Shown piece after piece: positions 13,279 to 29,909 of a stretch of DNA of 64,000 bases. The stretch covers positions 626-64,625 of the forward strand of contig JAFTXM010000113.1 in NCBI GenBank assembly GCA_017465025.1, written 5' to 3'. Under the pieces are notes generated by a model. The model was given only the letters and a program-made list of their open reading frames with translations, was not told where the DNA came from and searched no databases. The stretch is from Oscillospiraceae bacterium (lineage in GTDB: Bacteria > Bacillota > Clostridia > Oscillospirales > Oscillospiraceae). A program made the translations under genes and the position numbers. Within the stretch, counting starts at the first letter, position 1; every line of letters begins with the position of its first letter.

Positions 13279-13363
13279 GGGGGAATTCCCGAGTGGCCAA
13301 AGGGGACAGACTGTAAATCTGCTGGCAATGCCTTCGGTGGTTCGAATCCACCTTCCCCCACCA
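13279..13363 (+). tRNA. tRNA-Tyr (anticodon GTA); integration target of the island
   Basis: GGGGGAATTCCCGAGTGG...GACTGTAAATC...variable arm...GGTTCGAATCCACCTTCCCCCACCA. Its last 23 nt are duplicated at 29594-29618. Confidence 0.92.
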
Positions 13364-13365
13364 GA
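13341..13365 (+). repeat. attL core (TTCGAATCCACCTTCCCCCACCAGA)
   Basis: Exact 25-bp match to 29594-29618. Overlaps the T-arm and acceptor 3' end of tRNA-Tyr. Confidence 0.9.
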
Positions 13366-13554: not shown

Positions 13555-14724
13555 TTATCCACCGGAACGCAGACTTTGTATATACTGCTCCATGCGGTTA
13601 GCACTTTCACGCTTCATACCCGGCGTTGCATGTGCGTATGTGCTTAGTGTAAAAGCAGCTGTAGAGTGTCCCAGGTTTTCCTGCACCGTTTTGATATCAT
13701 CACCGGCACGCAGACTATTGACGGCGTATGTATGTCTCAAGTCGTGGAAACGAAGCTCCTCCAAACCTATCTCTGCCATAATCCTTTTGAAATTCATGTA
13801 AAGAGTCTTGTTGTTTATGTATCGACCCAACTCGTTCGTAAACACAAGATTCTTTTCATTATTCCATAGATTACCCGCCTGTATTGCCCACATATGCTGT
13901 TGGGCTTTTTGCTTTCTCAGGGCATCCATTACGTCAAAGGCTGCGGTGAGTACCCGGATTTTATCATTTTTGAGACTGCTGAAACTAAACTCCTTTTCGC
14001 CCTTTGCCCGGTTGTGCTGCTTGTTTATCAGCAGCGTGCCGTTTTCAAAGTCAACGCAGTCCCAAGTGAGGCCGAGCACCTCTCCTTGTCTTAGCCCGGT
14101 GAAAGCAGTTACAAATAATACAAGCTCATAGGGGTCCCCCTTGATGGCGTTCAAGAAGGATATTACATCAGAATCCTCCAGAGGCTTGATTTGTTTTTTC
14201 TCTACTCTGGGGAGTATGACAGCTTCCAAGGGATTAACCCGCAAGTAGCCAAGCTTCTTTGCCTGCTCAAGTGATCTGTGAAATACACCGTGAATGTTCT
14301 TTACAGACTTTGGAGAAAGGTGCATATCATCAAGCAGCATATTGTAAACCTTCTGAACCATATAAGGTGCAAGCTTGGTAAGCCGTATGTCACCTAGATA
14401 TGGTTTAAGATGTACCCGTACATGCTGTTCATATGCGCTCTTTGTTGCAGGCTTGATATTTCCAGTGTAATCCTTGAGCCAGATATCAAGCCAGTCTCCG
14501 AGTTTGATAGAGTTGGGTGCAACGAATGTCCCCTCATCAATCTCTCTTATTACCTGATTTAGCTTCTGGCGCACTTCCTTCTGAGTCTTGCCATAGATGG
14601 ATTTTTGAATCTGCTTTCCGGTCTTTGGATCAAAGCCTAAAGTGTATCGCGCCTCCCAGCGTCCATCCGAACGCTTCCTTATGGTGCCGCCTCCGCTGGC
14701 ACCTCTTGTCGTTTTTCCTGACAT
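13555..14724 (-). CDS. int: tyrosine-type site-specific integrase
   Basis: 389 aa. N-terminal SAM-like domain plus a catalytic domain with R...HDLRHT...LGH...Y motifs (RFHDLRHTYA, NLGHSTAAFTLSTYAH). Confidence 0.92.
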   Translation of the reverse strand: MSGKTTRGASGGGTIRKRSDGRWEARYTLGFDPKTGKQIQKSIYGKTQKEVRQKLNQVIREIDEGTFVAPNSIKLGDWLDIWLKDYTGNIKPATKSAYEQHVRVHLKPYLGDIRLTKLAPYMVQKVYNMLLDDMHLSPKSVKNIHGVFHRSLEQAKKLGYLRVNPLEAVILPRVEKKQIKPLEDSDVISFLNAIKGDPYELVLFVTAFTGLRQGEVLGLTWDCVDFENGTLLINKQHNRAKGEKEFSFSSLKNDKIRVLTAAFDVMDALRKQKAQQHMWAIQAGNLWNNEKNLVFTNELGRYINNKTLYMNFKRIMAEIGLEELRFHDLRHTYAVNSLRAGDDIKTVQENLGHSTAAFTLSTYAHATPGMKRESANRMEQYIQSLRSGG

Positions 14725-14762: not shown

Positions 14763-15683
14763 TCAGTCCATTCGTTTTCTTGCCCGCATACGGTCACTCT
14801 CAAGCCATTCAATGAACTCTTCAAAGTCCAGCTCACCGTTTAAGCACATATCCCGCTTTTCTCTGGCTTCCAGTGACCAGGCGTTGAACTCGTCCCTTGT
14901 CATCATCCCCTTACTCACACGGGCGTTGTGAGCCTTGTAGGAACGCTTGTATTCCTTTATAACAGGGTTTTCAAGAATTCTCTTCTCATAGATACGGAAG
15001 GAGCCCAAATCTTTACAGGTCTTACCGCCTGTTTGAGAAGCCTTACGACTGCAGTACTCGGTGTTGTAGTTGCCAACGATACCGAAGTACTTGCCGCAGT
15101 ATTTACACTTGCGGAAATTTATGCCGTAATTTATATAGTTTACAAGCATGAACGAGATAAGGTCTCTTGCAGAATCGGTGTGCAGTACCTCGGTATAGAA
15201 GGGCTCAGAAAGCTCTTCTTTGAGCCTATGCTGTTCTATGATATATTTCCTGTCCGGCAAGTCATACGCAAAGGGCCCAATATACCCGGTGCATACCTGC
15301 TCATAGCATATCCTGCCATAACCCAGGTTTTCGGGAATTACTTCCATCGGGAATATATCTTTCAGCCAAAGCTGAGCTTTCTGTAACTCAGATATATTTT
15401 CATTTGCTGCAATGACAGCAAACACAGGACTTTCCTCAAGAAGAAGCCGTATGTCCTTCTTATTTATATCTGCATAGATAAAGTCTGCTATGCCCTGACC
15501 TATGGGATACTCCCTGTGCCAAAGCAGAGTCTTCTCCTCACGAATTTCATAACATTCCCTCTTTCCGTCTGTATATGCGCAGACGGAAATTTTTTTATTT
15601 CCCTTCGACAAGATAAAACACTCCTTGCAAACCACTGTGTATATAATGCATTTAGACGACCTACTAAACACATTATATACCAA
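14763..15683 (-). CDS. hypothetical protein with C-terminal Cys cluster (CKYCGKYF...YCS...KTC)
   Basis: Long ORF in a compact arrangement with int. No motif I can assign. The start is uncertain. Confidence 0.5.
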   Translation of the reverse strand: MVYNVFSRSSKCIIYTVVCKECFILSKGNKKISVCAYTDGKRECYEIREEKTLLWHREYPIGQGIADFIYADINKKDIRLLLEESPVFAVIAANENISELQKAQLWLKDIFPMEVIPENLGYGRICYEQVCTGYIGPFAYDLPDRKYIIEQHRLKEELSEPFYTEVLHTDSARDLISFMLVNYINYGINFRKCKYCGKYFGIVGNYNTEYCSRKASQTGGKTCKDLGSFRIYEKRILENPVIKEYKRSYKAHNARVSKGMMTRDEFNAWSLEAREKRDMCLNGELDFEEFIEWLESDRMRARKRMD

Positions 15684-15924
15684 AGAGTCTATTAAGGCAA
15701 GCGAAAGGAGTCGAAGAATTATAGCATTTGAAAATCTTCCAAACGTACTCAGCGCAGAACAGTTGGCTCAGGTCTTGGGGATATCCCGGGCCGGGGCCTA
15801 TCAGCTTTTGCATACGGAGGGTTTCCCTACTCTGCGTATAGGCAAGCGTATGCTTGTACCGAGAGACAAACTGATGGAGTGGATAGACCGGAACACAGGA
15901 GGCGGCTATGCAGTGGGAGAATAA
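15625..15924 (+). CDS. xis: excisionase-type helix-turn-helix DNA-binding protein
   Basis: LSAEQLAQVLGISRAGAYQLL...FPTLRIGKRMLVPRDKLMEWI matches the MerR-like Xis/HTH_17 pattern. The start may be the ATG at 15646. Confidence 0.7.
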   Translation: MQTTVYIMHLDDLLNTLYTKESIKASERSRRIIAFENLPNVLSAEQLAQVLGISRAGAYQLLHTEGFPTLRIGKRMLVPRDKLMEWIDRNTGGGYAVGE

Positions 15925-17002
15925 GCAGGAATCCATTCCTGTGGGGCGGCCAAACGGGAATTCCAGAATGAACGCAGTTACAAAAGATCTGTATGAAATC
16001 GAAAGAGATTTGCAGCGGAAAATGAATCCTACATATCTTAAAACCTTTACCATGGCAGAGCTGTACGAAGAAGTGTTTGAAAGCAGGCCCTCAATAATCG
16101 AGGGCCTGCTGACAGTCGGCACATATATCCTTGCCGGAGCTCCCAAGCTCGGCAAGTCCTTTCTGGTGATGCAGTTTGCATGGCATATAAGTACTGGGGC
16201 TCCTATCTGGGGAATGGAGGTGATGCAAAGCCATGTACTGTATCTGGCTCTTGAGGACGACAAAAGAAGATTGCAAACAAGAATGTACCGGATGTTCGGC
16301 GAGGAGCCGACAGACAAGTTACATTTAACTGTTTACTCACGGAGCATAGGCGGCGGACTTATACAGCAGATAGAACATTTCATTGAGGAACACCGTGGTA
16401 CAAGGCTTGTTATCGTAGATACCCTGCAAAAGGTGCGGGATGCAAACAGGGAACAATACAGTTATGCAGGAGACTATGCTGAGATAGCTGAACTTAAGAA
16501 GCTTTCAGATAAGCACTCTATATGTATTATCCTTGTGCATCACACAAGAAAACAACAGGCGGAGGATGGCTTTGACATGATATCCGGCACTACAGGCTTG
16601 ATGGGGGCCGCTGACGGAGCCTTTCTCCTGCGTAAAGAGAGGCGCACAGCGAATACCGCTTCCCTGGAAGTTTCGGGACGTGACCAGCAGGATCAGAAGC
16701 TTTATTTGAAAAGGAACGAAGAAAGCCTGTGCTGGGAGCTGGAGAGTGTAGAGACCGAAATCTGGAAAGAAGCCCCGGAGCCGGTGTTAGGGCAGCTTAA
16801 CAGACTTATTGGGAATGCAGATCATTGGAGCGGCAGCCCCACGGAGCTGGTACAGGCTTTAGGTATAGATATGAAAGCCAATGCTCTGACATTTAAGCTG
16901 AACGCAAACGCCGGACGGCTGCATGATGAATATGGAATAAAATACAGCAGCAGCCGAAGTCACGCTGGGAGAAGAATTGAGCTTAAGCGTGACAATGCGT
17001 GA
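15908..17002 (+). CDS. RepA-like AAA/RecA-fold ATPase (AAA_25-type)
   Basis: Walker A GAPKLGKS, Walker B LVIVDTL, then ILVHHTRK. Typical of mobile-element replication/helicase-loader ATPases. Confidence 0.75.
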   Translation: MQWENKQESIPVGRPNGNSRMNAVTKDLYEIERDLQRKMNPTYLKTFTMAELYEEVFESRPSIIEGLLTVGTYILAGAPKLGKSFLVMQFAWHISTGAPIWGMEVMQSHVLYLALEDDKRRLQTRMYRMFGEEPTDKLHLTVYSRSIGGGLIQQIEHFIEEHRGTRLVIVDTLQKVRDANREQYSYAGDYAEIAELKKLSDKHSICIILVHHTRKQQAEDGFDMISGTTGLMGAADGAFLLRKERRTANTASLEVSGRDQQDQKLYLKRNEESLCWELESVETEIWKEAPEPVLGQLNRLIGNADHWSGSPTELVQALGIDMKANALTFKLNANAGRLHDEYGIKYSSSRSHAGRRIELKRDNA

Positions 17003-17228: not shown

Positions 17229-18353
17229 TTGAAAAGAACGATAAGCGCAATGTCCGGACCGGGAGTAATAGCCCACAACAGAAGAACATATACCGCAGCC
17301 AATGTTGACCGGGAACGTACAAAGGACAACATTGAGTACTGCTGCCAAGATATAAAGGATGTGTACCATGAGCTCTTTGATGAGGCTTTGGAAGAATACA
17401 ACGCCAAGCAAACCCGCAAGGATAGGATGATAGAAGACTACTACGAGAAGATACGCTCAGGGAAACAGGAGAAGCCCTTTTATGAGGTCATCTTCCAGAT
17501 AGGCAACAAGGACGATATGGCGGTAGGGACTCCCGAAGGAGACAAGGCTAAGGAAATTCTTCACCAGTTCATGCTGGGCTTTGAGGGAAGAAATCCACAG
17601 CTGAGAGTATTTTCCGCACACCTACATATGGACGAGGCAACACCTCATTTGCACATAGACTTTGTGCCCTTTATCACCAGCAGCAAGCGGGGCCTGTCAA
17701 CCAGAGTATCGCTGAAAAAGGCTCTTGAAGCGCAGGGCTTCAAAGGTGAGGGCAAGACCAGCAACGAGCGCATTCTCTGGATAGAGTCCGAGAAAGAAGC
17801 ACTGGCCGAGATAATGCACAGGCACGGTATAAAGTGGGAACAGAAAGGTACACACCTTGAGCATCTGGATGTGCTGAACTTCAAGAAAGAGCAGCGGGCC
17901 AGGGAGGTGGCCGAGCTTGAACATCGACTTGAGCAGCTGACGCCGGAGGTAGAAAATGCGGAGTATCTGGCTGAGGAGTATTCTAAATCTCCGGAAGAAA
18001 TACTCCCGGAAGCTGCACCGTTTGAGACGGCGAAGAGCTACCGGGAGAAAAAAGCTAAGCCTATAATTGAAAAGATGTCCAAAGTTATAATGTCAATATA
18101 CTCAGCCTACGTGAAGCTAAAGTGGAACTACGAAAGTATAGAAAGTATGTACCATCAGGAGAAGAAAAAAAATAACTTTCTGGAGTCATTGCTTAACTCT
18201 GCTTCAAAAGAGATGCGCTCCCTCAAGGCCAAGGCAAAAGACCTTGAGCGTGTGAAGAAATATTTCGGAAAAAGTAAAATAGACGAGGCTATAGAAGCCG
18301 TAAAACAGCAGGAGCGAACAAACAGCACAAGGGAAAAACTTTTTTCACGGTGA
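17229..18353 (+). CDS. mob: MobV-family relaxase (plasmid recombination enzyme Pre/Mob)
   Basis: N-terminal HNRR motif and HLHMDEATPHLHIDFVP (the HxDE...PHxH motif). Coiled-coil C-terminus. TTG start after AGGAGG. Confidence 0.85.
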   Translation: MKRTISAMSGPGVIAHNRRTYTAANVDRERTKDNIEYCCQDIKDVYHELFDEALEEYNAKQTRKDRMIEDYYEKIRSGKQEKPFYEVIFQIGNKDDMAVGTPEGDKAKEILHQFMLGFEGRNPQLRVFSAHLHMDEATPHLHIDFVPFITSSKRGLSTRVSLKKALEAQGFKGEGKTSNERILWIESEKEALAEIMHRHGIKWEQKGTHLEHLDVLNFKKEQRAREVAELEHRLEQLTPEVENAEYLAEEYSKSPEEILPEAAPFETAKSYREKKAKPIIEKMSKVIMSIYSAYVKLKWNYESIESMYHQEKKKNNFLESLLNSASKEMRSLKAKAKDLERVKKYFGKSKIDEAIEAVKQQERTNSTREKLFSR

Positions 18354-18597: not shown

Positions 18598-18625
18598 TTG
18601 ACATAGAATACGATTGTAGTACAAT
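18598..18625 (+). promoter_or_regulatory. sigma-A promoter of the cargo operon
   Basis: TTGACA, 16 nt, TACAAT, about 25 nt upstream of the RHH gene's GTG start. Confidence 0.65.
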
Positions 18626-18649
18626 AAAATGTGGATAGGAGTGACCACT

Positions 18650-18853
18650 GTGCAGAAACCGAAATTGCAGATTACGCAAAAGAAATATACCGAAGAAACC
18701 GCAATTATCTCCATGCGAATGCCCAAGGACATGCTGCGCGATATTGATGCCGTCGCATCACGGACGGGTCGCACCCGCAATGAAATTCTTATGCTCAGCA
18801 TGGAGTTTGCTTTGGATAATATAGAAATCAGCGATATAGAAAACAGAGAGTGA
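18650..18853 (+). CDS. ribbon-helix-helix (CopG/Arc-type) DNA-binding protein
   Basis: AIISMRMPKDMLRDIDAVASRTGRTRNEILMLSMEFAL fits the beta-strand/helix/helix RHH pattern. The ORF opens at 18629. The GTG at 18650 sits 8 nt after GGAG and downstream of the predicted -10. Confidence 0.7.
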   Translation: MQKPKLQITQKKYTEETAIISMRMPKDMLRDIDAVASRTGRTRNEILMLSMEFALDNIEISDIENRE

Positions 18854-18862
18854 GGTGAGGGC

Positions 18863-21800
18863 ATGGCAGTAATCAAATGTAAAATGTGCGGCGGAGATAT
18901 AGAACTCTCCACCGACAAAACATTCGGCACCTGCGAATATTGCGGCAGCACGATGACCCTGCCCAGAATTGACAATGAGCAGCGGGCGGCGGCCTTCAAC
19001 CGCGGCAACCATTTCCGCCGCATCGGTGAGTTTGACAAGGCTCTCGCCGTGTACGAGCGCATCGTGGCCGAAGATGACACGGACGCCGAGGCCCACTGGT
19101 GCTGTGTTCTCTGCCGCTTTGGCATAGAGTACGTGGAAGACCCGGAGACCTATGAGTATCTCCCCACCTGCCACCGTGCCAGCTTTGACAGCGTTCTGGA
19201 GGATGTGGACTATCTTGCCGCACTGGAGCACTCTGATGGTGTAACCCGCCGCCATTACCAGCGGGACGCGGCAAAGATTGCCGAGATACAGCGCGGCATC
19301 CTTGCCACCAGCCAGAACGCAGAGCCCTATGATGTTTTCATCTCCTATAAGGAACTGGACGCAAACGGCGAGCGCACCCGTGACAGCATTTTGGCTCAGG
19401 ATATATATTATCAGCTCACAGAGCGGGGCTGGCGTGTGTTCTTCTCCCGCATATCGCTGGAGGATGTCCCCGGCACCCAGTATGAGCCTTATATATTCGC
19501 TGCCCTCAACAGCGCAAAGGTCATGGTGGTTGTAGGTACAAGCGCCGAAAATCTCAATGCGGTTTGGGTCAAAAACGAGTGGAGCCGTTATCTCAGCCTC
19601 ATGCGCAAGGACAGAAGCAAGCTCCTTTTGCCCTGTTACCGGGATATGGACCCCTACGACCTGCCCGAACAGCTTGCCGTGCTCATGAGCTATGACATGG
19701 GCAAGATAGGCTTTTTGCAGGACCTTATCCGTGGTATCGGCAAAGTTCTGTCGGCGGACAAACCCAAAGAGCCTGAACGCGAGAACATCAAGGAAACCGT
19801 TGTTGTCCAGCATGCCTCCAACACCAATATCTCCGCCCTCTTAAAGCGCGGCGCAATGGCCCTTGAGGATGGGGACTGGGAAAAGGCCGACGGCTTTTTC
19901 GAGGAAGTGCTCAACCACGACGCTGAGTGCGTGGGCGCATACATAGGCAAGACCCTTTATGAGACAAAGAGCCATAGCCTTGACGAGTTTGTAAAGAAGC
20001 TTCTTGAGAAGCACAGACAGGACAGCTTTAAAACTCTGTATATTGAAAAAGACGCAGAGCATATAAATGCCTCTGTAAAGAAATTTGCTCTCCCCGGCTA
20101 CCTGAAAACCGAGGAGATACTCCCACTATATGACTATAAGCTCCAGTACAGCAGCAGGGTGGACAGCCGCCTGCTGCAAAAGGAGCAGACCCTCAAGGAC
20201 TGGGATAGCTACAAATGGCTTGCCCGTGCCCAGCGCTTTGACCCCGAGGAAAAAGACCCCTCCCTTACCCGGGCCAAAAGAGAGCTTAATAATCAGCTTG
20301 AGCGCAGGATAAAGGAAGCCCAGCGGGAAGAAGAGGAAGAAAAGAAAAAGCTTGAAGCCGCCTATGCCGCCCACCTTGCCAAGGCGGATGAAAAGGCAAA
20401 AGCTGCCTACGACAATGCTGCCAAGCGCCGTGAGGCGGATTACCAGAGCTATCTGAAATCTGCAAAATACGAAAACGACATCGCCAAGCTCCACAACACC
20501 GCCAAGCTCTTTGAGGCCCTGAACGGATACAAGGACAGTGCAGCACAGGCTGAAGGCTGCCGCAGCAAAGCGGCGGAGATAAAGCGCCGTCAGGAGCTTG
20601 AGGCAGCACGCCTGAAAGCCGAGCGCGCCGAGAGAACCAAGAAAGCCGCCATCATCATAGGCACGGTGGCAGCTCTCGCCGCCGCAGTGATTCTCGTAAT
20701 AACCACTGTTATCCCCGCAATGAAATATTCCTCCGCACAGGAAGCTCTTGAGGCCGGAAACTATGACGAGGCCATCGCCGCCTTTACCGCCCTTGATGAC
20801 TATAAGGACAGCGCACAGCAGGCGGAGCATGCCAACAACCTGAAAATTGCGGAGCTTGAGCGTATAGCAGCGGAAAAAGCAGCAGAAGCCGCCCGCCTTG
20901 AGGCGGAAAGACAGGCCGCCATAGAGGCGGAAGAAAAAGCCCGTCAGGAGGCCGAAGCAGCCCGCCTTGAGGCCGAAGCCGCCGCAGAGCAGGCCCGTCT
21001 TGAGGCTGAGGAAGCCGCAGAGCAGGCCCGTCTTGAAGCTGAGGCTGCTGCCGAGGCAGCACGCCTTGAAGCCGAAGCAGAAGCAGAGCGCGCCCGTATA
21101 GCCGCGGAAGAAGCTGCAGAGAAAGCCCGCATAGAGGCCGAAGAAGCGGCCAGACTTCTCTACGAAAGCTCCCTTGAAGGCAGGTACGAAGCTGCCATGG
21201 AGTTGATGGAAGAAGGAAAACTCCCTCAGGCCGCCGTGGCCTTTGGCCAGATTGCAGACTATAAGGATGCCAAGGCACTTAGTCTTGCTCTCTGGGATGA
21301 AATAGACCTCGGTGATACCATATCCGCCGGTAACGGGCACACGGTGTGCCTCATGTCCGACGGCAGCGTTAAAACCGTTGGACGATACGGCAACATAGGC
21401 GGCAACGGATATATTTCTGTCAGCGCCGGGCATTACTCAACATCTGCGACTAAGGCCGACGGTTCGGTGTACACTGTTAGATTTGACACCGCCGTCAGTC
21501 ACCAAGTAGAGAGCACCACAGCGCCTGCGGAAAATCTTCCGACGGATATTGTTGCTGAAAGCGGCGGGTATGGTCTGAGATTTGACGGTACAATAGTAGG
21601 CAATCACTATGAAACCGATTTTTATGGTGATGTAAGTGGCTGGACAGATATAATTGCAATAGAAGCCACAAATAATCATGTTGTTGCTCTCAGAACTGAC
21701 GGTACTGTAGTAGCCTCAGGAACAAGCGAGGACGGCCAGTGCGATGTAGGCGAATGGACAGATATTGTGGCTATCAGTGCAAGTGCTTCTCACACTCTTG

Positions 21801-23938
21801 GACTGAAAGCCGATGGTACAGTCGTAGCCACCGGCAGAAACAATTGCGGTCAGTGCAATGTGGGTGAATGGACAGGCATTGTAGCCATCAGCGCCGGCAA
21901 TGAACACAGCGTGGGTCTCAAGGCCGACGGCACAGCCGTGGCCGTGGGCGACAATTTCCGCGGACAGTGCGATGTGAGCGAGTGGACAAATATCGCCATG
22001 CCGGGCAGTCTGGACTATGGCAGACTGTACCGCAAGGCCGAAGCCCAGCTTGCACGGGGCAACAAGGGCGCGGCGGCCATCAGCTTCTACAAGGCCGGAA
22101 AATTTGCGGACGCCAGAGAGCGCAGCATGGCCCTCTGGGATGAAGTTGCCGTAAGAGACACCATCTCCGCAGGAAGGGACTTTGCTCTTGGGCTGACTGC
22201 TGGGGGCAAAGTGTGCGCTACTGAGATTTATGCTGAGCCTAATTATCACACCTCATTTGGCAATTCCCAATTAAATAATTGGAGAGATTTAAGTGCTGTC
22301 AGTGCAGGTTATGCGTATACCCTTGGCCTTAAGTCAAACGGCGAAGTTTTGATGGGGATATATGATCCCAGATATGACAAAGATAATCGGAATTTGGCTG
22401 AAGATTGGACGGATATAGTTGCGGTCAGCTCCGGGCATAGCCATGCTGTGGGCCTGCGCGCAGACGGTACTGTATTATCAACAGGCTTTATCGCAAGTGA
22501 TGTCGGTGCATGGACAGATATAGTGTCCGTCTCCGCGGGGTATATGTTCACTGTCGGTTTGCGTACCGACGGCACAGTGCTGGCAGATGGAACCAATACA
22601 TATAATCAATGCAATGTGTCCGACTGGACGGATATCGTAGCCATCAGTGCAGGAAATAATCACACAGTTGGCCTTAAATCCGACGGCACTGTGGTGGCTA
22701 CGGGACACAATGGCAACGGCCAGTGCGATGTTGGTGAGTGGACGGATATCGTGGCCATCAGTGCAGGTGTAGACCACACTGTGGGTCTTAAAGCTGACGG
22801 TACAGTGGTGGCAGTGGGCGATGATTTCTGCGGTCAGTGTGATGTGAGCAGCTGGAGGAATGTTGTTGCGGTCTCTGCTGCAAGTACATACACAATAGCC
22901 CAATGCACAGACGGCGGTATGCTCATCACCGGTGACAACAATTCACGCAGCGAGAGCCTGAGCGCGGTCAAGGACTGGACAGATATAAAGCTCCCCACAT
23001 ATATGCTTTTTTCTCTCGACAGAGGCCTCGTTGCCAATATCGCCATGACCTTATTCAAATCTGGGGATGTCAAGGGCAGCATGAAGCTGTGGGATGAGCT
23101 CGTGGCAAGGAATTCCGTCGCTGCCAAAGCTTGGGGTACTGTCACAGTGAAAGTAGACGGTACTGTTGCACAAACAATTGATATTGATTATTCAGGATTT
23201 CAAAAATATGGATATTGGGTCCCCCCAAAAGATTTGGGTGTGAGCAGCTGGAGAAATATCATCGAGATAAGCGCAGGTGACAATCATATTGTTGGCCTCA
23301 AATCCGATGGTACTGTGTTGGTAGCCAGACCAGACAACTCCTATGAATTTCCTTATTACAGCCAAAGAGATGTAGGCAACTGGAGAGACCTCGTGTCCGT
23401 CAGTGCCGGAGATATTCATACACTTGGATTGAAGGCAGATGGCACGGTGGTAGCCGTAGGTCAGAATGTAGATGGCCGCTGTGATGTGAGCGAATGGACA
23501 GATATCGTGGCCATCAGCGCAGGCAATTCACACAGTGTAGGCCTAAGGTCCGACGGCACCGTGGTAGCGGTTGGCGGTGAAAGATACGGTCAGTGCGATG
23601 TGAGCGACTGGACAGACATCGTTGCTGTCAGTGCAGGTGGTACTCATACGGCAGGACTCAAAGCCGACGGCACAGTAGTGGCTGTTGGCAGCAATATATA
23701 CGGTCAATGCAATGTAGGAGACTGGACAGACATTGTGGCCATCAGCGCCGGAGTATCTTACACCGTCGGCATGAAAGCTGACGGCACATTGGTGGTCGTT
23801 GGCGGTGGCAGGCGCGGAGAGGGTGACATCTCCGAATGGACAGATATTGTGACACTCAGCTCTAAAGACTGTATAGGCTTGAAAGCTGACGGTACTGTAG
23901 TGACCGTGAATATAACCAAGCCAATTAACGGAAGATGA
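18863..23938 (+). CDS. 1691-aa protein: zinc ribbon, TIR domain, TPR/coiled coil, single TM helix, Ala/Glu-rich stalk, then three RCC1-like beta-propeller modules
   Basis: CKMCGG..CEYCGS ribbon. TIR from about aa 154 to 292 (YDVFISYKE...AVWVKNEWSR). TM at aa 595-619 (AAIIIGTVAALAAAVILVITTVIPA), preceded by RAERTKK. About 20 blades of the form IVAISAGxxHTVGLKADGTVVAxG. Confidence 0.9.
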   Translation: MAVIKCKMCGGDIELSTDKTFGTCEYCGSTMTLPRIDNEQRAAAFNRGNHFRRIGEFDKALAVYERIVAEDDTDAEAHWCCVLCRFGIEYVEDPETYEYLPTCHRASFDSVLEDVDYLAALEHSDGVTRRHYQRDAAKIAEIQRGILATSQNAEPYDVFISYKELDANGERTRDSILAQDIYYQLTERGWRVFFSRISLEDVPGTQYEPYIFAALNSAKVMVVVGTSAENLNAVWVKNEWSRYLSLMRKDRSKLLLPCYRDMDPYDLPEQLAVLMSYDMGKIGFLQDLIRGIGKVLSADKPKEPERENIKETVVVQHASNTNISALLKRGAMALEDGDWEKADGFFEEVLNHDAECVGAYIGKTLYETKSHSLDEFVKKLLEKHRQDSFKTLYIEKDAEHINASVKKFALPGYLKTEEILPLYDYKLQYSSRVDSRLLQKEQTLKDWDSYKWLARAQRFDPEEKDPSLTRAKRELNNQLERRIKEAQREEEEEKKKLEAAYAAHLAKADEKAKAAYDNAAKRREADYQSYLKSAKYENDIAKLHNTAKLFEALNGYKDSAAQAEGCRSKAAEIKRRQELEAARLKAERAERTKKAAIIIGTVAALAAAVILVITTVIPAMKYSSAQEALEAGNYDEAIAAFTALDDYKDSAQQAEHANNLKIAELERIAAEKAAEAARLEAERQAAIEAEEKARQEAEAARLEAEAAAEQARLEAEEAAEQARLEAEAAAEAARLEAEAEAERARIAAEEAAEKARIEAEEAARLLYESSLEGRYEAAMELMEEGKLPQAAVAFGQIADYKDAKALSLALWDEIDLGDTISAGNGHTVCLMSDGSVKTVGRYGNIGGNGYISVSAGHYSTSATKADGSVYTVRFDTAVSHQVESTTAPAENLPTDIVAESGGYGLRFDGTIVGNHYETDFYGDVSGWTDIIAIEATNNHVVALRTDGTVVASGTSEDGQCDVGEWTDIVAISASASHTLGLKADGTVVATGRNNCGQCNVGEWTGIVAISAGNEHSVGLKADGTAVAVGDNFRGQCDVSEWTNIAMPGSLDYGRLYRKAEAQLARGNKGAAAISFYKAGKFADARERSMALWDEVAVRDTISAGRDFALGLTAGGKVCATEIYAEPNYHTSFGNSQLNNWRDLSAVSAGYAYTLGLKSNGEVLMGIYDPRYDKDNRNLAEDWTDIVAVSSGHSHAVGLRADGTVLSTGFIASDVGAWTDIVSVSAGYMFTVGLRTDGTVLADGTNTYNQCNVSDWTDIVAISAGNNHTVGLKSDGTVVATGHNGNGQCDVGEWTDIVAISAGVDHTVGLKADGTVVAVGDDFCGQCDVSSWRNVVAVSAASTYTIAQCTDGGMLITGDNNSRSESLSAVKDWTDIKLPTYMLFSLDRGLVANIAMTLFKSGDVKGSMKLWDELVARNSVAAKAWGTVTVKVDGTVAQTIDIDYSGFQKYGYWVPPKDLGVSSWRNIIEISAGDNHIVGLKSDGTVLVARPDNSYEFPYYSQRDVGNWRDLVSVSAGDIHTLGLKADGTVVAVGQNVDGRCDVSEWTDIVAISAGNSHSVGLRSDGTVVAVGGERYGQCDVSDWTDIVAVSAGGTHTAGLKADGTVVAVGSNIYGQCNVGDWTDIVAISAGVSYTVGMKADGTLVVVGGGRRGEGDISEWTDIVTLSSKDCIGLKADGTVVTVNITKPINGR
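20891..21157 (+). repeat. tandem 33-nt (11-aa, ARLEAEAAAEQ-like) coding repeat, about 6-8 units
   Basis: Units start at 20960, 20993, 21026, 21059, 21092 and 21125 (GCCCGYCTTGARGCYGAR...). Confidence 0.8.
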
Positions 23939-24005
23939 CTTGACCAATATTTGTGTACCCAATACATAAACAACTAAGAATAAACCATAAACGAGGGGAT
24001 AAGCC

Positions 24006-26879
24006 ATGGCATTGATAAAATGCAAAATGTGCGGCGGTGATCTGAAAATCACCGAGGGTCTGACCGTTGCCGAGTGCGAATACTGCGGCAGCAGGCAGAC
24101 CATTCCCAGCGCAGACAACGAAAAGAAAATGACCCTCTTCACCAGAGCTGCCAGGCTTCTGCGCGGCTGCGAGTTTGACAAGGCGGCGGGCCTTTTCGAG
24201 AGCATAGTGGCGGACTTTCCCGAGGAGGCGGAGGCCTACTGGGGCTTGGTGCTGTGCAAATACGGCATTGAGTACGTGGACGACCCTGCCACCGGCAAAA
24301 AGGTGCCCACCTGCCACCGCTCCAGCTTCGACAGCGTTCTGGACGATGCCAACTTCGAGCAGGCCTGCGAGAATACCGACGCTGTTGCCCGCCGGGTCTA
24401 CCGGGACGAGGCGCGGCAGATAGAGGAGCTTCGCAAGCGCATCATTGAAGTCTCCGGCAGGGAAGAGCCCTATGATGTTTTCATATCCTACAAGGAGACG
24501 GACGAAAACGGCCAGCGCACTTTAGACAGCGTTATTGCTCAGGACATATACGATGAGCTGAGTGGAAAAGGCTATCGTGTGTTCTTCTCACGTATCAGCC
24601 TTGAGGACAAGCTGGGTGTTGAGTATGAGCCTTACATATTTGCTGCCCTCAATAGTGCAAAGGTAATGCTTGTTATAGGAACAGACTTTGAAAACTTTGA
24701 TGCGGTTTGGGTAAAAAACGAGTGGAGTCGGTTTCTAAAACTTATAGAGGCGGGTCAAAAGAAGGTACTTATCCCTGTTTTCAAGAATATAGATGCCTAT
24801 GACATGCCTAAGGAATTTAACAAACTCTCTGCACAGGATATGGGTAAGGTAGGCGCAATGCAGGATCTTGTTCGTGGTGTTGAGAAAATTATTCCGATTA
24901 CAAAAAACACTTTTGATACGACCCATGAACGAAGCACCACAGTCAATTCAGCCGGTGATAAAATTGCCTCTTTGCTTGACAGAGGTAAAATGGCATTAGA
25001 GGATAGTGATTGGGACAAAGCTACCGGTTTCTTTGAGGAAGTTCTAAACAACAACTCAAAAAATTCTCATGCTTATCTGGGAAAGGTTTTGGCTGAGGAA
25101 AAATGCAGTAATGCTGATGCTCTCATACTGTTACTAGATCAAATAGGCGAAGTAGAATTTGAGACCCTGAAGCTCTCTTCAAACCAAAACCATATACTGG
25201 ATATGGCTAACTGTTATCATGTTGAAGGATATCTTTCTAAATCGGAAGTAATAACGCTTTATAATTATGATCTTAGCTATACATCTAAAGTGCGTCCTTT
25301 TGAAGAAATACTTGAAAGTAAGAAAAAATGGTTTGAATATAACAAAAATTTTGCTCGAGCTGAACAGTTTGCCTCTTCTGAGTTAGCAACGCTGATAGAG
25401 TACATAAAGAACTCTGTTTTGGGCAGATGCAATACGATGCTTGCAGAGGAAAAGGAACATGAAAAAGAGACAAAGGAAAAACTTTGCTCTGCCTATGAAA
25501 AGCATATAGAAAAGATAGACGAAGAGGTAAAAAAACTAAATGCCAAGGCTGTTTCTAAGCGTGATGCAGACTATGATGTATGGACAGCAAACATTGAAAT
25601 AGAATCAGTTCCTGCGCATCTGCTGAATACTGCTACTAAGCTTGATGGACTGAACGGTTACAAAGACAGTTCTATTTTCGCGAAGAAAGCGAGAGATAAG
25701 GCCGCTGTTGAGCAAGCGAAACTGGATGCTGCAATTGAAATAGCAAACCTAAAAAAAGCTAAGACAAAAAAACTTAGTATTCTTGCTGCAATAGCGATTG
25801 TAATTGTCGCAACTGCTTTTTTCACAGTAACAGAAATTGTTATTCCCGCCAATGATTACAAAGCAGCAGAAGCATTAGTTGATGCGGGGAAATACGAAGA
25901 AGCAATTGCTGCCTTTGAAACATTGAAAGGATATAAGGATTCTGAAGAAAGATACCAAGAACTTTCTGAACATGTAGCTCGAGAAAAGGCAGAAGCTGAA
26001 ATAAAAAAGCATAACCCCAACAGTTTTATTTCTGCTGGTTTCTACCATACTGTGGGTTTGAAATCCGATGGTACGGTAATATCTACGGAGTATACTGGTA
26101 TATTTTCTGGTAGTCGGTGTGATGTGTATGGTTGGCGTGACATTGTATCAATAAGTGCTGGAGAAAATCTTACTTTAGGGCTTAAATCAGATGGTACAGT
26201 GGTTGCTGCAGGAGAAAGTGATTATTTAACTCAAATACTATCTTGGCAAGACATCATATCTATTAGCACATGGAATTATCATGCTGTAGGTTTACGGTCA
26301 GACGGCACTGTTGTTGTTGCGGGGAAGAATGGCGTTAATGACGATAGATGTAATGTAGATGATTGGCGTGACATCGTAGCAATAAGCGCAGGACAATGGT
26401 TTACTGTAGGCCTTAAATCAGACGGTACAGTAGTTGCTGTTGGGAGTAAGGAAGATGGACGATGCGATGTGAGCGAATGGACAGACATTGTTGCTATAAG
26501 TACAGGCTCTAGTCACACTGTAGGGCTTAAATCAGATGGAACAGTAGTTGCTGTTGGAAATAATAAACATGGTGCATGCAATGTTGGTGAATGGACAGAT
26601 ATTGTAGCAATCAGTGCTGGAAACATGCATACTGTAGGTCTGAAATCAGATGGCACGGTGGTAGCAACTACACACACGGGGACTTTTTATAACGGATGGT
26701 GTGATGTTGGTGAATGGACAGATATTGTAGCAATCAGTGCTGGACGAGACCACACCGTAGGTCTAAAGTCAGATGGCACGGTTGTAGCCACTAAGTACAT
26801 AGGGGACTATTATTGTGGACAGTGCGATGTGTCTGACTGGTCAGATATTAAACTTCCTGAAAAAGAAGTAGGAGTGTAA
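24006..26879 (+). CDS. 957-aa paralogue: zinc ribbon, TIR, TPR/coiled coil, single TM helix, one seven-bladed RCC1-like propeller
   Basis: Collinear with the first 300 aa of the 1691-aa protein, with identical spacing (YDVFISYKE at 156, VWVKNEWSR at 234-242). TM at aa 590-614. Seven blades of the form IVAISAGxxHTVGLKSDGTVVA. Confidence 0.9.
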   Translation: MALIKCKMCGGDLKITEGLTVAECEYCGSRQTIPSADNEKKMTLFTRAARLLRGCEFDKAAGLFESIVADFPEEAEAYWGLVLCKYGIEYVDDPATGKKVPTCHRSSFDSVLDDANFEQACENTDAVARRVYRDEARQIEELRKRIIEVSGREEPYDVFISYKETDENGQRTLDSVIAQDIYDELSGKGYRVFFSRISLEDKLGVEYEPYIFAALNSAKVMLVIGTDFENFDAVWVKNEWSRFLKLIEAGQKKVLIPVFKNIDAYDMPKEFNKLSAQDMGKVGAMQDLVRGVEKIIPITKNTFDTTHERSTTVNSAGDKIASLLDRGKMALEDSDWDKATGFFEEVLNNNSKNSHAYLGKVLAEEKCSNADALILLLDQIGEVEFETLKLSSNQNHILDMANCYHVEGYLSKSEVITLYNYDLSYTSKVRPFEEILESKKKWFEYNKNFARAEQFASSELATLIEYIKNSVLGRCNTMLAEEKEHEKETKEKLCSAYEKHIEKIDEEVKKLNAKAVSKRDADYDVWTANIEIESVPAHLLNTATKLDGLNGYKDSSIFAKKARDKAAVEQAKLDAAIEIANLKKAKTKKLSILAAIAIVIVATAFFTVTEIVIPANDYKAAEALVDAGKYEEAIAAFETLKGYKDSEERYQELSEHVAREKAEAEIKKHNPNSFISAGFYHTVGLKSDGTVISTEYTGIFSGSRCDVYGWRDIVSISAGENLTLGLKSDGTVVAAGESDYLTQILSWQDIISISTWNYHAVGLRSDGTVVVAGKNGVNDDRCNVDDWRDIVAISAGQWFTVGLKSDGTVVAVGSKEDGRCDVSEWTDIVAISTGSSHTVGLKSDGTVVAVGNNKHGACNVGEWTDIVAISAGNMHTVGLKSDGTVVATTHTGTFYNGWCDVGEWTDIVAISAGRDHTVGLKSDGTVVATKYIGDYYCGQCDVSDWSDIKLPEKEVGV

Positions 26880-26882
26880 ATT

Positions 26883-28739
26883 ATGGGGAAATTTGTAATT
26901 GAATGTCCCTCGTGTGGACGATATGCGGAAGCCAAGACAGGCTTTTTCGCAAAAAAGAAGATAGACTGTGAGTGCGGCTACACCATCGATGTGCTCACGG
27001 ACAAACTGACAACAAGGGTCTGCCCTCACTGTGACAGCACCTTTGTCTATGACCAGTCGGTCAAGGGAAAAGTGCGCTGCCCCGCCTGTAAAAGCTGGGT
27101 CATACCCTCTGAGGATGATACAAAGCTGGTTAGAATTGCCTGTGAGCAGTGCGGCATTATTCTGCTGCCCACAATGACCGCTGAGACTTACACCTGCCCC
27201 GTCTGCGACCATGTCAACGATGTGCAGCGACTTCTGGTGCAGGACAAGATAAAGAAGGACGGCCTTGCCAGCATCATACGCTACGAGGGTGACAACAACA
27301 CCCTCGTCTGGAAGCACCCCATTGAGGACTTCAACTTCGGCTCGCAGCTCATCGTCCACGAGAGTCAGGAGGCCATCTTCTTTCAGGACGGTCAGGCCCT
27401 TGACCTTTTCGGCGCAGGCCGATACACCCTTGAAACCCAGCAGCTTCCCATCCTTGAGAAGTTCTACAAGCTGCCCACCGATACCGAGGGCACCTTCCAC
27501 TCCGAGGTCTACTTTATCAACAAAGTGGTGCAGATGGCCATCAAGTGGGGTACTCCGGAAAAGCTGCGCTTCATCGACCCCCTCACCGGCGTTCCCCTTG
27601 AGCTGGGCGCATCCGGCGAGATGAACATTCAGGTGTCCGACTCCAGAAGGCTGCTTTTGAAGCTGGTTGGCACCATGAAGGGCATCGCATGGGATTCCGG
27701 CGATGGCCTTGCAAAGTCCCTGCAGAGCGTTTTCCGCCCCCTTATCACCACCGCGGTCAAGGCAAATCTGGCCGGCGTCATCAAGGACGAGGCCATAGAC
27801 ATTCTGGAAGTGGACGCAAAGCTGGAGCTTATCTCCGAGAGACTACGCGAGAAGCTGCTTCCCGGCTTTGAGGAATACGGCCTTACCATCCCCCAGTTTT
27901 ATGTGACCACCGTTGTCCTCCCGGAGGATGACCCCAACTTCAAGCGCATCCGTGAGTTACATACCATTACTCTCCAGACCCGCGTGATTCAGGCCGAGGC
28001 CGTGGTAAAAACCGCCGAGGCACAGGCACAGGCTCAGTACCGCGTGGCAGAGGAGCAGAGCGCCGCCGCCATCGAGAGCGCCCACCGTGAGGCCGTCATG
28101 CAAAAGCAGACCACCGAGACGGAGGTTGCCCGCGCGGCAGCCGAGCGCCGGGTCATCGAGGCTCAGGCTGAGGCACAGGCACAGCGCATGGCCGGGCTCA
28201 CCGAGGCGGAGATCATGGCCGCCAAGGGCTACACCGAAAAAGACGTCATTCAGGCCGATGTGCAGAAGGCCTACGCCGAGAGCATCGGCAACATGGGCCC
28301 CGCCATTTCTGCCGGAGGCGGCAGCAGCGGTATTCTGGGCGATATGCTGGGTCTTGGCGTGGGCATGGCCGCGGCCGGTGTCGTCGCGCCCCAGATAGGG
28401 GAGATGATGCAGGGCTTTAAGATGCCCGCACAGGCCCCTGCTGCCCCGGCAGCGCCCGTGGCTTCTGGATGGGATTGCCCTGCCTGCGGCACAAAGAACG
28501 TCCAGAGCCGTTTCTGCCCCGACTGCGGCGCTAAGAAGCCGGAGCGGGATGTGAGCTGGGATTGCCCCGTCTGCGGTGAAAAGGACATAGCCTCCAACTT
28601 CTGCCCCACCTGCGGCGCAAAAAGGCCCAGCAGCGCATGGGACTGCCCTGAGTGCGGAATGAAAGGCATCAGCAGTAAGTTCTGCCCAAACTGCGGCCAC
28701 CGGAGCACTCTTGACAGTGCAATGGAGGTTCAGGTATGA
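26883..28739 (+). CDS. SPFH/Band-7 domain protein (YdjI / 'virion core protein' type) with three N-terminal and three C-terminal zinc ribbons
   Basis: N-terminal CPSC..CEC, CPHC..CPAC and CEQC..CPVC. Core IIRYEGDNNTLVWKHP...IVHESQEAIFFQDGQ...YFINK is typical of the Band_7_1 SPFH subfamily. This is followed by an Ala/Gln coiled coil, a Gly-rich hydrophobic segment, and 3 x WDCPxCGxK..S.FCPxCG. Confidence 0.85.
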   Translation: MGKFVIECPSCGRYAEAKTGFFAKKKIDCECGYTIDVLTDKLTTRVCPHCDSTFVYDQSVKGKVRCPACKSWVIPSEDDTKLVRIACEQCGIILLPTMTAETYTCPVCDHVNDVQRLLVQDKIKKDGLASIIRYEGDNNTLVWKHPIEDFNFGSQLIVHESQEAIFFQDGQALDLFGAGRYTLETQQLPILEKFYKLPTDTEGTFHSEVYFINKVVQMAIKWGTPEKLRFIDPLTGVPLELGASGEMNIQVSDSRRLLLKLVGTMKGIAWDSGDGLAKSLQSVFRPLITTAVKANLAGVIKDEAIDILEVDAKLELISERLREKLLPGFEEYGLTIPQFYVTTVVLPEDDPNFKRIRELHTITLQTRVIQAEAVVKTAEAQAQAQYRVAEEQSAAAIESAHREAVMQKQTTETEVARAAAERRVIEAQAEAQAQRMAGLTEAEIMAAKGYTEKDVIQADVQKAYAESIGNMGPAISAGGGSSGILGDMLGLGVGMAAAGVVAPQIGEMMQGFKMPAQAPAAPAAPVASGWDCPACGTKNVQSRFCPDCGAKKPERDVSWDCPVCGEKDIASNFCPTCGAKRPSSAWDCPECGMKGISSKFCPNCGHRSTLDSAMEVQV

Positions 28740-29422
28740 AAAGCAGTAAAGTGAGATTTTACATAGTCCTTGCGGCGGTGCTGGTGCTCTTTTGCGTAAT
28801 CGCGCTGCTTGTGCCCTTCGCAAGAGGCTTTGTGTTCTGGCTGAGCTTTGCCGCTGCCGTCTTTGCCATTCTCATTCAGCTCTACGCTATGCCAAGAGCC
28901 ATGCAGGGCGACGCCAGAAGCAAATATTACGGCTTCCCCATCCTGCGCATCAGCTTTATCTACCTTGTGGTTCAGCTTGCTCTGAGCCTTGTGTTCATGG
29001 CCCTTGGCAGCTTTATCCCATGGTGGGTGCCTGCCATGGTTTATATTGTTCTCGCCTGCGTTGCTCTTGTTGGCTTTGTGGCTGCCGATTCCGTCCGTGA
29101 AGAGGTACAGCAGCAGGACGAGGAGATCAAAAACAAGGTGCAGCTCATGCGCTCTCTCCAGTCCAGAGCCAATGTGCTGGCCGGACAGTTTGAAAGCGGC
29201 GAGGCCGGCAAGGCATTGAAGAAATTTGCCGAGGATATGCGCTATTCCGACCCTGTCAGCGTGGATGCCATAGCCGATGCGGAAGCGGAGCTTATCGTCG
29301 CCATAGATAACCTTCAGCAGGCTGTGATAGATGCCAACGAGGCCGATATTGTCACCCTCTGCCGCAAAGCCACCGCCGCCCTTGCCGAGCGCAACCGCCT
29401 CTGCAAGCTCAATAAGCACTGA
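28736..29422 (+). CDS. membrane protein: 4 predicted TM helices plus a cytoplasmic coiled-coil tail (no recognisable family)
   Basis: ATGA start/stop overlap with the SPFH gene. Hydrophobic helices lie at about aa 8-28, 32-52, 66-88 and 94-116, followed by an acidic helical tail. Confidence 0.7.
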   Translation: MKSSKVRFYIVLAAVLVLFCVIALLVPFARGFVFWLSFAAAVFAILIQLYAMPRAMQGDARSKYYGFPILRISFIYLVVQLALSLVFMALGSFIPWWVPAMVYIVLACVALVGFVAADSVREEVQQQDEEIKNKVQLMRSLQSRANVLAGQFESGEAGKALKKFAEDMRYSDPVSVDAIADAEAELIVAIDNLQQAVIDANEADIVTLCRKATAALAERNRLCKLNKH

Positions 29423-29427
29423 AATAG

Positions 29428-29460
29428 ATCACCCTGCCCGATATGAGCAGGGTGATTTTT
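29428..29460 (+). terminator. rho-independent terminator ending the cargo operon
   Basis: ATCACCCTGC-ccgatatga-GCAGGGTGAT followed by TTTTT. Confidence 0.85.
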
Positions 29461-29593: not shown

Positions 29594-29618
29594 TTCGAAT
29601 CCACCTTCCCCCACCAGA
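29594..29618 (+). repeat. attR core: orphan copy of the tRNA-Tyr 3' end
   Basis: Exact 25-bp match to 13341-13365. No upstream tRNA body is present. Confidence 0.9.
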
Positions 29619-29651: not shown

Positions 29652-29909
29652 CAGTTAAATCCACCCTTGCGGGTGGGTGAAATATTGCTTTGCAACGTGA
29701 AATACGCCTGCGGTGTGTGAAATTTGCCTCGGCCGTTAGTTGGTGGATTTAATTTCACTGTGAGCACAAGCAAACAATTTCACTAAAAGCTAACGATTAC
29801 TGAAGGTTCAAATTTATACATAAAGGTGCCGAAAATATCTATTTTGGCGCAATAGCCAAACAAAAAAGGCACCTTTTAGGATGTCCTTTTTGCCTTTTTC
29901 CTCCTGCCC

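Follow-up and report, generated by a model that had tools for sequence, protein, structure and literature searches.

Innate immunity in animals, plants and bacteria has TIR domains as its common currency, and TIR enzymes that cleave NAD+ (NADases), such as AbTir, TIR-STING, SPARTA and SARM1, are generally switched on by assembly. To our knowledge, the bacterial TIR systems described so far detect infection from within the cell. Among them, Thoeris (types I-XI) sets one to several TIR paralogues with an intact catalytic glutamate beside single-copy constant genes, and effectors containing transmembrane (TM) helices are known in several of its types (bioRxiv 10.64898/2025.12.03.692087). In Bacillus subtilis, the SPFH (Band-7) protein YdjI is soluble, its Band_7_1 domain leading into a low-complexity stretch and a C-terminal zinc ribbon (PMC8581546; PMC11237479), and it is recruited into membrane foci by integral partners (PMC8581546; PMC11237479; bioRxiv 10.64898/2026.02.06.704340). 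Both types of protein are encoded together in a five-gene operon at positions 18,598 to 29,460 of a 64,000-nucleotide stretch of DNA from an Oscillospiraceae bacterium (GCA_017465025.1, contig JAFTXM010000113.1, positions 626 to 64,625), hereafter the window. The operon encodes a ribbon-helix-helix (RHH) protein, two TIR proteins with RCC1-type propellers, a zinc-ribbon SPFH protein and a four-TM (4-TM) protein, and belongs to a real, conserved TIR/SPFH membrane system that is apparently undescribed. We consider it, with a probability of about one half, to be a membrane-organised TIR conflict system of the abortive-infection type, most probably directed against phages or mobile elements and carried as cargo of an integrative mobilisable element (IME).

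The TIR proteins are the products of the paralogous genes 2 and 3, which share one domain order, namely a zinc ribbon, a helical region, TIR, a TM helix and RCC1 propellers. This order had been proposed in a first-pass annotation made from the sequence alone and was borne out by Pfam profiles (TIR_2, RCC1_2), motif positions and hydropathy, and the putative TIR regions proved to be true TIR folds, with Glu239 at the codons given in Table 1, in profile searches, alignment and structural comparison alike. The AlphaFold2 model of residues 1-620 of the gene 3 product (predicted local distance difference test, pLDDT, 85) gave AbTir (7uxu) as its top Foldseek match, with a TM-score of 0.71 on the target, followed by Roq1, L6/L7 and PdTIR, all with a probability of 1.0. 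Two alignments, one of 32 and one of 52 homologues, show no variation at the four ribbon cysteines, at C84 and H104 or in the stretch W235-V-K-N-E239-W, and C103 is conserved in at least 90% of the sequences, while the WVKNEW motif with Glu239 is present in 140 of 144 cluster representatives. E239 aligns with the glutamate of the W-C-x-x-E motif in the TIR domain of flax L6, which we take to be the catalytic residue of plant and bacterial TIR NADases. A near-invariant catalytic glutamate within a conserved motif argues for an enzymatic rather than a purely structural TIR, and for catalytically competent domains in genes 2 and 3. In both proteins, an RTKK/KTKK patch precedes the single strongly hydrophobic helix, which predicts an N-in, C-out topology with the propellers outside the cell. 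Just past the TM helix of gene 2, 33-nt tandem repeats (20938-21147) encode an 11-residue unit rich in Glu, Ala and Arg (EAARLEAEEAA), and this segment probably forms a helical stalk lifting the propellers through the cell wall. Secreted TIR virulence factors of the TcpC/BtpA type were also considered for these genes and rejected, as there is no signal peptide, the N-terminus carries a Cys4 ribbon and the TIR domain lies on the cytoplasmic side of the TM helix.

The SPFH protein (gene 4) had been described on first pass as an SPFH core bracketed by three zinc ribbons on either side, and the CxxC pairs confirm this layout; in all there are eleven CxxC motifs and one CxC, together with a coiled coil and a Gly-rich hydrophobic segment. 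A true TM helix was looked for by hydropathy and none was found, and a sequence search against the PDB returned generic zinc ribbons only. With its Band_7_1 domain, its solubility and its C-terminal zinc ribbons, gene 4 is of the YdjI type, and the literature on YdjI cited above, as a soluble Band-7 protein with a C-terminal zinc ribbon recruited by membrane partners, agrees with the kinship that the annotation had proposed. For gene 5, the predicted four TM helices and helical tail are reproduced by the AlphaFold2 model (pLDDT 82.5), in which TM4 extends as a long cytoplasmic helix that leads to a three-helix bundle. Alignment of its homologues shows an invariant SDPVS motif and an invariant C-terminus, LAERNRLCKLNK. 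Gene 5 has no Pfam family (no match at E<=0.01), and a Foldseek search of the PDB with its model gave no significant match.

Dozens of other genomes keep these genes together. For gene 5, there are 1837 homologous clusters at 90% identity, and the neighbourhoods of three divergent members, taken from ENA and NCBI contigs, contain the same cassette, in one case among housekeeping genes and in another on a DUF6076/AAA_25 element. A wider scan, limited to one genome for each species, gave 151 loci, and 80 of these were retained; most are contigs of metagenome-assembled genomes (MAGs), and their open reading frames (ORFs) were searched with the domains of the window, ORF calling and hydropathy-based TM calls being crude. 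Seventy-eight of the 80 loci come from Clostridia of gut or rumen origin (Oscillospiraceae, Ruminococcus, Lachnospiraceae). The only two outside Bacillota, in a Spirochaetales MAG (L078) and a Paludibacteraceae MAG (L086), reflect either horizontal transfer or binning contamination. Among the 35 well-flanked loci, in which gene 5 has 6 kb or more on its upstream side and 3 kb or more downstream, the SPFH gene is found in 33, one to five TIR paralogues in 31 and the RHH gene in 25. When at least 2.2 kb upstream of gene 5 is available, an SPFH gene is present in 64 of 68 loci and adjoins gene 5 in 52. Gene order is variable, the TIR genes lying before the SPFH gene, between it and gene 5, or after gene 5. 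Compared with the window over 50 loci, the TIR module has a median best identity of 73%, whereas the SPFH core reaches 61.5% and gene 5 only 46%, and by this measure the TIR module is the most conserved part of the cassette. A tblastn search of 50,697 phage genomes with the TIR module and gene 5 gave no match; this is therefore not a phage-borne family in cultured phages.

Several cassettes also encode zinc-ribbon partners without a TIR domain (L062, 6585-9994; L083, 8388-10004; L084, 6711-8537; L039, 5007-6515; L030, 5551-7086), which have an N-terminal zinc ribbon (MAAKLECEICGGKL...CDSCG), short beta repeats of the GTVKVEG type, TPR and an RCC1 propeller, and no TM helix. Since the SPFH and 4-TM proteins are also found with zinc-ribbon partners that have no TIR (in L083, in L040 and on the plasmid described next), TIR is the common client but not an obligate one. 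A distant TIR-less version of the core lies on the Butyrivibrio fibrisolvens plasmid pNP21 (NZ_CP146965.1, 6658-10053; L088), with an SPFH protein carrying C-terminal ribbons, a gene-5-like gene that a short duplication or frameshift has split (the intact 223-residue form is P0241) and, in place of the TIR protein, a 464-residue zinc ribbon-TPR-coiled-coil protein; it adjoins a restriction-modification S subunit and a YoeB/RelB toxin-antitoxin pair. A homologue search with the plasmid gene-5-like protein gave two matches and no new context.

Within the family, a constant TIR module is joined to C-termini that are exchanged. Residues 1-150 used as a query found 5076 cluster representatives at 50% identity among 1.84 billion, 2302 of them at E<=1e-30, and since this N-terminus is 45-85% identical among the matches listed, the 50%-identity clusters differ mainly downstream. 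TIR_2 was detected in all 52 sampled members, and their C-termini comprise RCC1_2 (10), BspA-type LRR_5 (9), DUF6273 (9) and LRR_8 (8), besides Flg_new and others; the 87 paralogues encoded in the loci give the same picture (RCC1, BspA-LRR, LRR_8, DUF6273, Sel1, Flg_new). These C-termini have diversified by recombination, for which the conserved N-terminal module seems to serve as a homology anchor when new sensor parts are imported. Gene 3 itself is a codon-usage chimera with its junction near codon 180, inside the TIR domain: G+C content at third codon positions is 0.70-0.85 over codons 1-150 and then 0.2-0.4 from about codon 180 to the end, and it stays at 0.6-0.87 in the N-terminal part of gene 2 and in genes 4 and 5. 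Gene 3 looks like a recombinant in which a low-GC donor supplied the sensor part behind the conserved N-module. The earlier proposal that the TIR proteins are surface-exposed sensors holds for the predicted topology of both window genes and does not extend to the family as a whole, in which about half of the proteins lack a TM helix and RCC1 propellers occur on TM-bearing and on TM-less, cytoplasmic members alike.

Compared with described systems, the individual parts are known, namely TIR, SPFH, RHH and repeat sensors, and so is the principle of setting several TIR sensors next to constant partners; what appears to be undescribed is their combination, along with TIR receptors that span the membrane, the SPFH/4-TM core and the family's size. 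Profile searches returned the domains that had been anticipated (TIR_2, RCC1_2, Band_7_1, Zn_ribbon/DZR) and, equally as anticipated, no fitting PADLOC model for a named system. Thoeris shares with this operon intact-Glu TIR paralogues (TIR_2, invariant E239 and a TIR fold here) encoded beside single-copy genes. It differs in that the TIR proteins here, of about 600-1700 residues, have a zinc-ribbon/helical module of their own, often a TM helix, and large repeat sensors, and in that the role of constant partner falls here to an SPFH scaffold together with a novel 4-TM protein. Membership of Thoeris was rejected, as no ThsA or ThsB defence profile in PADLOC-DB 2.0 was matched and no known effector domain (SIR2-SLOG, Macro-TM, SLATT, DUF2270 or DUF6650) was found in genes 1, 4 and 5. 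AbTir (the best structural match), TIR-STING, SPARTA TIR-APAZ, SARM1 and SpbK resemble the TIR proteins of the window in fold, catalytic Glu and the presence of sensor and TIR on one polypeptide, for which activation by clustering is the natural model, but none of them spans the membrane with an extracytoplasmic sensor and none is associated with an SPFH protein. Animal Toll-like receptors (TLRs), whose signalling also takes place in flotillin/raft microdomains, likewise combine a repeat ectodomain (in the present family leucine-rich repeats in many members, a beta-propeller in the window) with a single TM helix and a cytoplasmic TIR. Here, however, the order is reversed, with an N-terminal TIR and a type-II orientation, and the TIRs retain an enzymatic Glu whereas those of TLRs are scaffolds; only the TIR fold is shared, and the resemblance is one of analogy, not family membership. 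PknB/PknD-type receptor Ser/Thr kinases and RsgI-type anti-sigma factors have the topology seen here, with the signalling domain in the cytoplasm at the N-terminus, then one TM helix, and outside the cell a sensor at the C-terminus, which in PknD is a beta-propeller, but the output here is TIR rather than kinase or anti-sigma and there is no sequence relationship. In the open full-text literature (subscription-only papers lay outside the search), no paper was found that combines TIR with SPFH or Band-7 in defence, and a 2025 systematic survey of TIR systems with 29 effector types, as far as its text and supplements were searched, does not mention SPFH, Band_7, zinc or RCC1.

The conflict-system reading would work as follows. 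The six-ribbon soluble SPFH protein and the 4-TM protein would form the invariant core, the cytoplasmic helical tail of the latter probably anchoring the former under the membrane; by analogy with YdjI, gene 5 would be the anchor. The variable part would be the receptors, two here and zero to five elsewhere, each consisting of the conserved zinc ribbon-helical-TIR module and swappable C-terminal repeats, and both receptors of the window are predicted to cross the membrane once and to display their RCC1 beta-propellers outside. The six ribbons of gene 4, together with N-terminal ribbons on every client, suggest ribbon-mediated docking of the client proteins, by which the SPFH/4-TM platform would hold the TIR modules in a microdomain beneath the membrane. 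The receptors may then cluster when the sensor domains are acted on by a ligand or by a perturbation of the envelope; as TIR NADases are activated by assembly, clustering on the SPFH platform would be the simplest coupling of the sensors to the invariant Glu. The assembled TIR domains would cleave NAD+, leading to NAD+ depletion or to an ADP-ribose-derived signal acting on the 4-TM protein, and finally to growth arrest or death of the cell. Such a signal might be read by the conserved cytoplasmic domain of gene 5, in the manner of TM effectors in Thoeris, CBASS and Pycsar. A more specific version, in which the system would be TLR-like in function as well as layout, with membrane TIR receptors whose LRR or beta-propeller ectodomains detect phage or other extracellular threats at the cell surface before DNA entry and which signal through TIR clustering in a flotillin-like SPFH microdomain, soluble paralogues serving intracellular cues and new specificities arising by recombination, is tentative and rather doubtful as a whole.

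The first-pass annotation had named a TIR-based defence or membrane-surveillance system as a candidate; this reading withstood the refuting conditions that could be computed, for the TIR regions have TIR folds, the gene set is conserved and no PADLOC model is matched, and it is the anti-phage role, along with the physical assembly, the trigger, NADase activity and the outcome, that we infer. Several observations weigh against such a role. The two genes flanking the cassette on each side in 56 loci are mostly housekeeping or IME backbone genes (by crude gene calls and with no background rate), PADLOC matches there are few and of mixed kinds (mad8 6, mad3 3, pAgo 2 and SIR2-Aga 2 of 138), and the usual defence-island signal is not evident. 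In PADLOC-DB 2.0, genes 2, 3 and 5 have no match at E<=0.01 and gene 4 only a spurious match to the LmuB coiled coil. SLOG, Macro, SIR2, SAVED and CARF domains were found in none of the five proteins by Pfam, NCBIfam or PADLOC, in line with the earlier remark that no ThsA-type (SIR2/SLOG or Macro) effector is recognisable, and no signal-binding effector can be named. TIR-less cassettes (L040, L083 and pNP21) keep the SPFH/4-TM core, which implies that this core must have a function independent of NAD+ cleavage. At least one TM helix follows the TIR in 51 of 90 paralogues from the loci and in 70 of 144 representatives, the remainder having none; the system is therefore not purely an outside-in sensor. 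TM calls were made by hydropathy alone and structure models were built from shallow alignments. The resemblance of some gene-5 homologues to PspM, taken up next, points in the same direction.

The main rival reading takes the operon for a module of envelope stress or membrane homeostasis like PspA-YdjGHI (SamGHI), in which the SPFH/4-TM pair would be a membrane-stress scaffold, the zinc-ribbon proteins, those with TIR included, would be sensors or adaptors, and any TIR product would be a physiological second messenger instead of an immune or suicide signal; on balance we regard it as unlikely. Gene 4 has the Pfam family and layout of YdjI, with Band_7_1, a low-complexity segment and C-terminal ribbons (PMC8581546; PMC11237479), and here as in B. 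subtilis a soluble YdjI-type SPFH protein is encoded beside integral membrane partners, which YdjI needs and one of which starts with zinc ribbons (YdjG there, the TIR proteins here); sub-membrane foci are probable. Residues 75-198 of the gene-5 homologue P0050 match PF25587, the 'Rv2743c family' (PspM), with 27.8 bits at a gathering score of 27.7, and P0051 reaches 25.5. PspM, the membrane partner of PspA in mycobacteria, is reported to lack homologues beyond Actinobacteria (PMC11237479). This marginal match extends over TM3, TM4 and the long helix and may reflect compositional bias, and gene 5 itself has none at E<=0.01; it represents either a remote link or compositional noise. The retention of the SPFH/4-TM core in TIR-less cassettes and the mostly housekeeping flanks also fit a stress module. 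On the other hand, PspA_IM30 was matched in none of the five proteins nor among the genes of the recurring cassette, and profile searches of the five proteins detected neither the TPM domain of YdjH nor the NTF2-like domain of YdjG, for which reasons membership of a Psp operon was rejected. Gene 4 has three extra zinc ribbons at its N-terminus, it is partnered by TIR proteins and by a 4-TM protein with a helical tail, and the cassette is accessory, patchily distributed and borne by IMEs or plasmids, whereas the B. subtilis operon is a chromosomal member of the sigma-W regulon. Paralogue expansion and recombinational swapping of sensors on an intact TIR are hallmarks of conflict systems and not of stress responses of the housekeeping kind.

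A role in cell-surface recognition is improbable. Here the ectodomains would be the working parts, serving colonisation, kin or neighbour recognition or glycan binding, with TIR and ribbon anchoring or oligomerising them on an SPFH raft; the C-terminal domains are indeed of repeat types common in surface proteins of gut Firmicutes, the long helical stalk of gene 2 suits the spanning of a cell wall, and the family is confined to gut and rumen Clostridia (78 of 80 loci). Yet the near-invariant catalytic Glu and its motif argue for an enzymatic TIR, half of the family has no TM helix, which places those 'surface' domains in the cytoplasm, neither a signal peptide nor a sortase motif is present, and the conserved part is the cytoplasmic module rather than the ectodomain.

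All coordinates of the operon given on first pass, comprising five same-strand genes with tiny gaps and an ATGA overlap, were reproduced by ORF calling, with gaps of 9, 67 and 3 nt in order and a 4-nt overlap of genes 4 and 5, and a GGAG-type ribosome-binding site precedes each of the five genes. Long antisense ORFs inside genes 2-5 were discarded as by-products of repeat- and GC3-rich coding sequence. The promoter previously placed upstream of gene 1 was recovered as the sole 11/12 match within 17-31 kb. Seventeen other sites there score 9-10 of 12, and the total of 18 does not exceed the 14.5 ± 3.6 found in shuffles; only the quality and position of the 18598-18625 site therefore count. A palindrome, ATTGTA-G-TACAAT (18613-18625), found by an inverted-repeat scan, overlaps the -10 box and is a candidate RHH operator, and as about 14 of 48 loci have TACA/TGTA palindromes upstream of their gene-1 homologue, autorepression of the promoter by the CopG/RHH protein through this site is likely. 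Gene 1 matches the CopG-like repressor phrog_7325 (E=1.2e-5), the only match to PHROGs among the five proteins, and weakly the BrnA antitoxin. It probably starts at GTG 18650, giving 67 residues, rather than at ATG 18629, because a GGAG ribosome-binding site precedes the former and the latter lies just 3 nt past the -10 box; independent gene callers gave the same 67-residue protein on identical metagenome contigs. At the other end, the strong terminator that had been proposed was not picked up by a consensus scan and was identified by folding, the hairpin at 29426-29458 with its U-run reaching -19.4 kcal/mol (z = -5.74, none of 200 shuffles being equally good).

The operon occupies 67% of a 16,253-bp island bounded by a perfect 25-bp direct repeat (13341-13365 and 29594-29618), in agreement with the earlier estimate of two-thirds of a 16.3-kb tRNA-Tyr island, and the island, with its integrase, relaxase and flanking direct repeats at a tRNA gene, is an IME. 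A first junction pattern for the empty site had no match, and a looser one led to one related metagenome contig (L093), on which the unoccupied site reads tRNA-Thr, tRNA-Tyr, hairpin and Gut-1 RNA. In the window, Gut-1 RNA (Rfam RF01706, 82.6 bits, full length) lies at 29652-29728 on the + strand, 34 nt beyond attR; from the order on the related contig, it sat directly downstream of tRNA-Tyr before the island was inserted. DUF6076 and AAA_25 adjoin the cassette again in other loci. That the operon is instead a selfish stabilisation or exclusion module of its element (addiction or entry exclusion), a toxic TIR being held in check by the SPFH and 4-TM proteins and the RHH protein, is very improbable, for although several other loci, like this one, carry it as IME cargo, its first gene is an RHH gene of weak antitoxin resemblance and its plasmid variant adjoins a toxin-antitoxin pair, only 12 of 87 loci have homologues of IME genes (DUF6076, AAA_25, integrase or Mob) close to the cassette, one locus (L001) sits among housekeeping genes, 10.8 kb is very large for an addiction module, and the variable sensor domains would have no role. 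Two further genes of the window were noted near the island. A GH25 lysozyme-family gene (12129-13028, - strand) lies just left of the tRNA-Thr/tRNA-Tyr pair, with no evident link to the island, and a SIR2-family gene of 238 residues (about 34842-35558, + strand) lies about 5.2 kb downstream of attR (29618). The latter, outside the island and with no SLOG domain, was rejected as a ThsA-like partner and is probably a housekeeping deacylase.

Table 1. Features of the operon and of the tRNA-Tyr island, in window coordinates.
Feature	Position	Strand	Evidence or remark
tRNA-Tyr (GTA) with attL	13279..13365	+	ARAGORN, Rfam; 25-bp repeat 13341-13365 is the tRNA 3' end
Tyrosine integrase	13555..14724	-	Phage_integrase E=3.8e-25, with SAM-like and Arm DNA-binding domains
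DUF6076 protein, IME backbone	14763..15683	-	PF19553 E=5.9e-23
AAA_25/DnaB-like ATPase, IME replication-type protein	15908..17002	+	PF13481 E=6.9e-29
Mob_Pre relaxase (element mobilisable)	17229..18353	+	PF01076 E=3.1e-19
Sigma-70-type promoter TTGACA-16-TACAAT	18598..18625	+	11/12 match, best in region
Gene 1, CopG/RHH-type regulator, 67 aa	18650..18853	+	probable GTG start; mechanical ORF begins at ATG 18629
Gene 2, predicted type-II membrane TIR protein, 1691 aa	18863..23938	+	TIR_2 E=6e-10; RCC1_2 E=1.2e-87, 12 stretches
Gene 2 zinc ribbon	18863-18958	+	motif positions
Gene 2 TIR	19325-19747	+	Glu239 codon 19577-19579
Gene 2 predicted TM helix	20645-20713	+	hydropathy and flanking charges; residues 595-613
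Gene 2 EAARLEAE segment, probable stalk, 11-aa repeats	20938-21147	+	repeat scan
Gene 2 RCC1-type propeller units, about three	21260-23935	+	RCC1_2 profile
Gene 3, paralogue of gene 2, 957 aa	24006..26879	+	TIR_2 E=2.4e-9; RCC1_2 E=1.2e-37, 6 stretches
Gene 3 zinc ribbon	24006-24101	+	motif positions
Gene 3 TIR	24468-24890	+	Glu239 codon 24720-24722
Gene 3 predicted TM helix	25773-25841	+	hydropathy; residues 590-608
Gene 3 RCC1 propeller, single, seven-blade	26073-26855	+	RCC1_2 profile
Gene 4, YdjI-type SPFH protein, 618 aa	26883..28739	+	Band_7_1 E=3.2e-35; Zn_ribbon_3, DZR
Gene 4 three N-terminal zinc ribbons	26883-27227	+	CxxC pairs
Gene 4 Band_7_1 core	27327-27929	+	Pfam
Gene 4 three C-terminal zinc ribbons	28455-28712	+	CxxC pairs
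Gene 5, 4-TM protein, 228 aa	28736..29422	+	1837 homologous clusters; AlphaFold2
Intrinsic terminator	29426..29460	+	12-bp G+C-rich stem, then UUUUU
attR, 25-bp copy of the tRNA-Tyr 3' end	29594..29618	+	repeat D14, 100% identical

Thousands of sequence clusters in gut and rumen Clostridia make this a large family, and half of its sensors are predicted to face outward. If it does serve in defence, it would represent a membrane-organised branch of TIR immunity, possibly acting from the outside in, would provide the first immune role for bacterial SPFH proteins and would give the poorly understood YdjI class a concrete function, and the parallel that has been claimed between raft-organised TLR signalling and bacterial immunity would become testable. 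If it is a stress module instead, NAD+-derived signalling would be linked to envelope homeostasis. Either way, the cassette is a conserved, mobile and uncharacterised system in abundant bacteria of the human gut.

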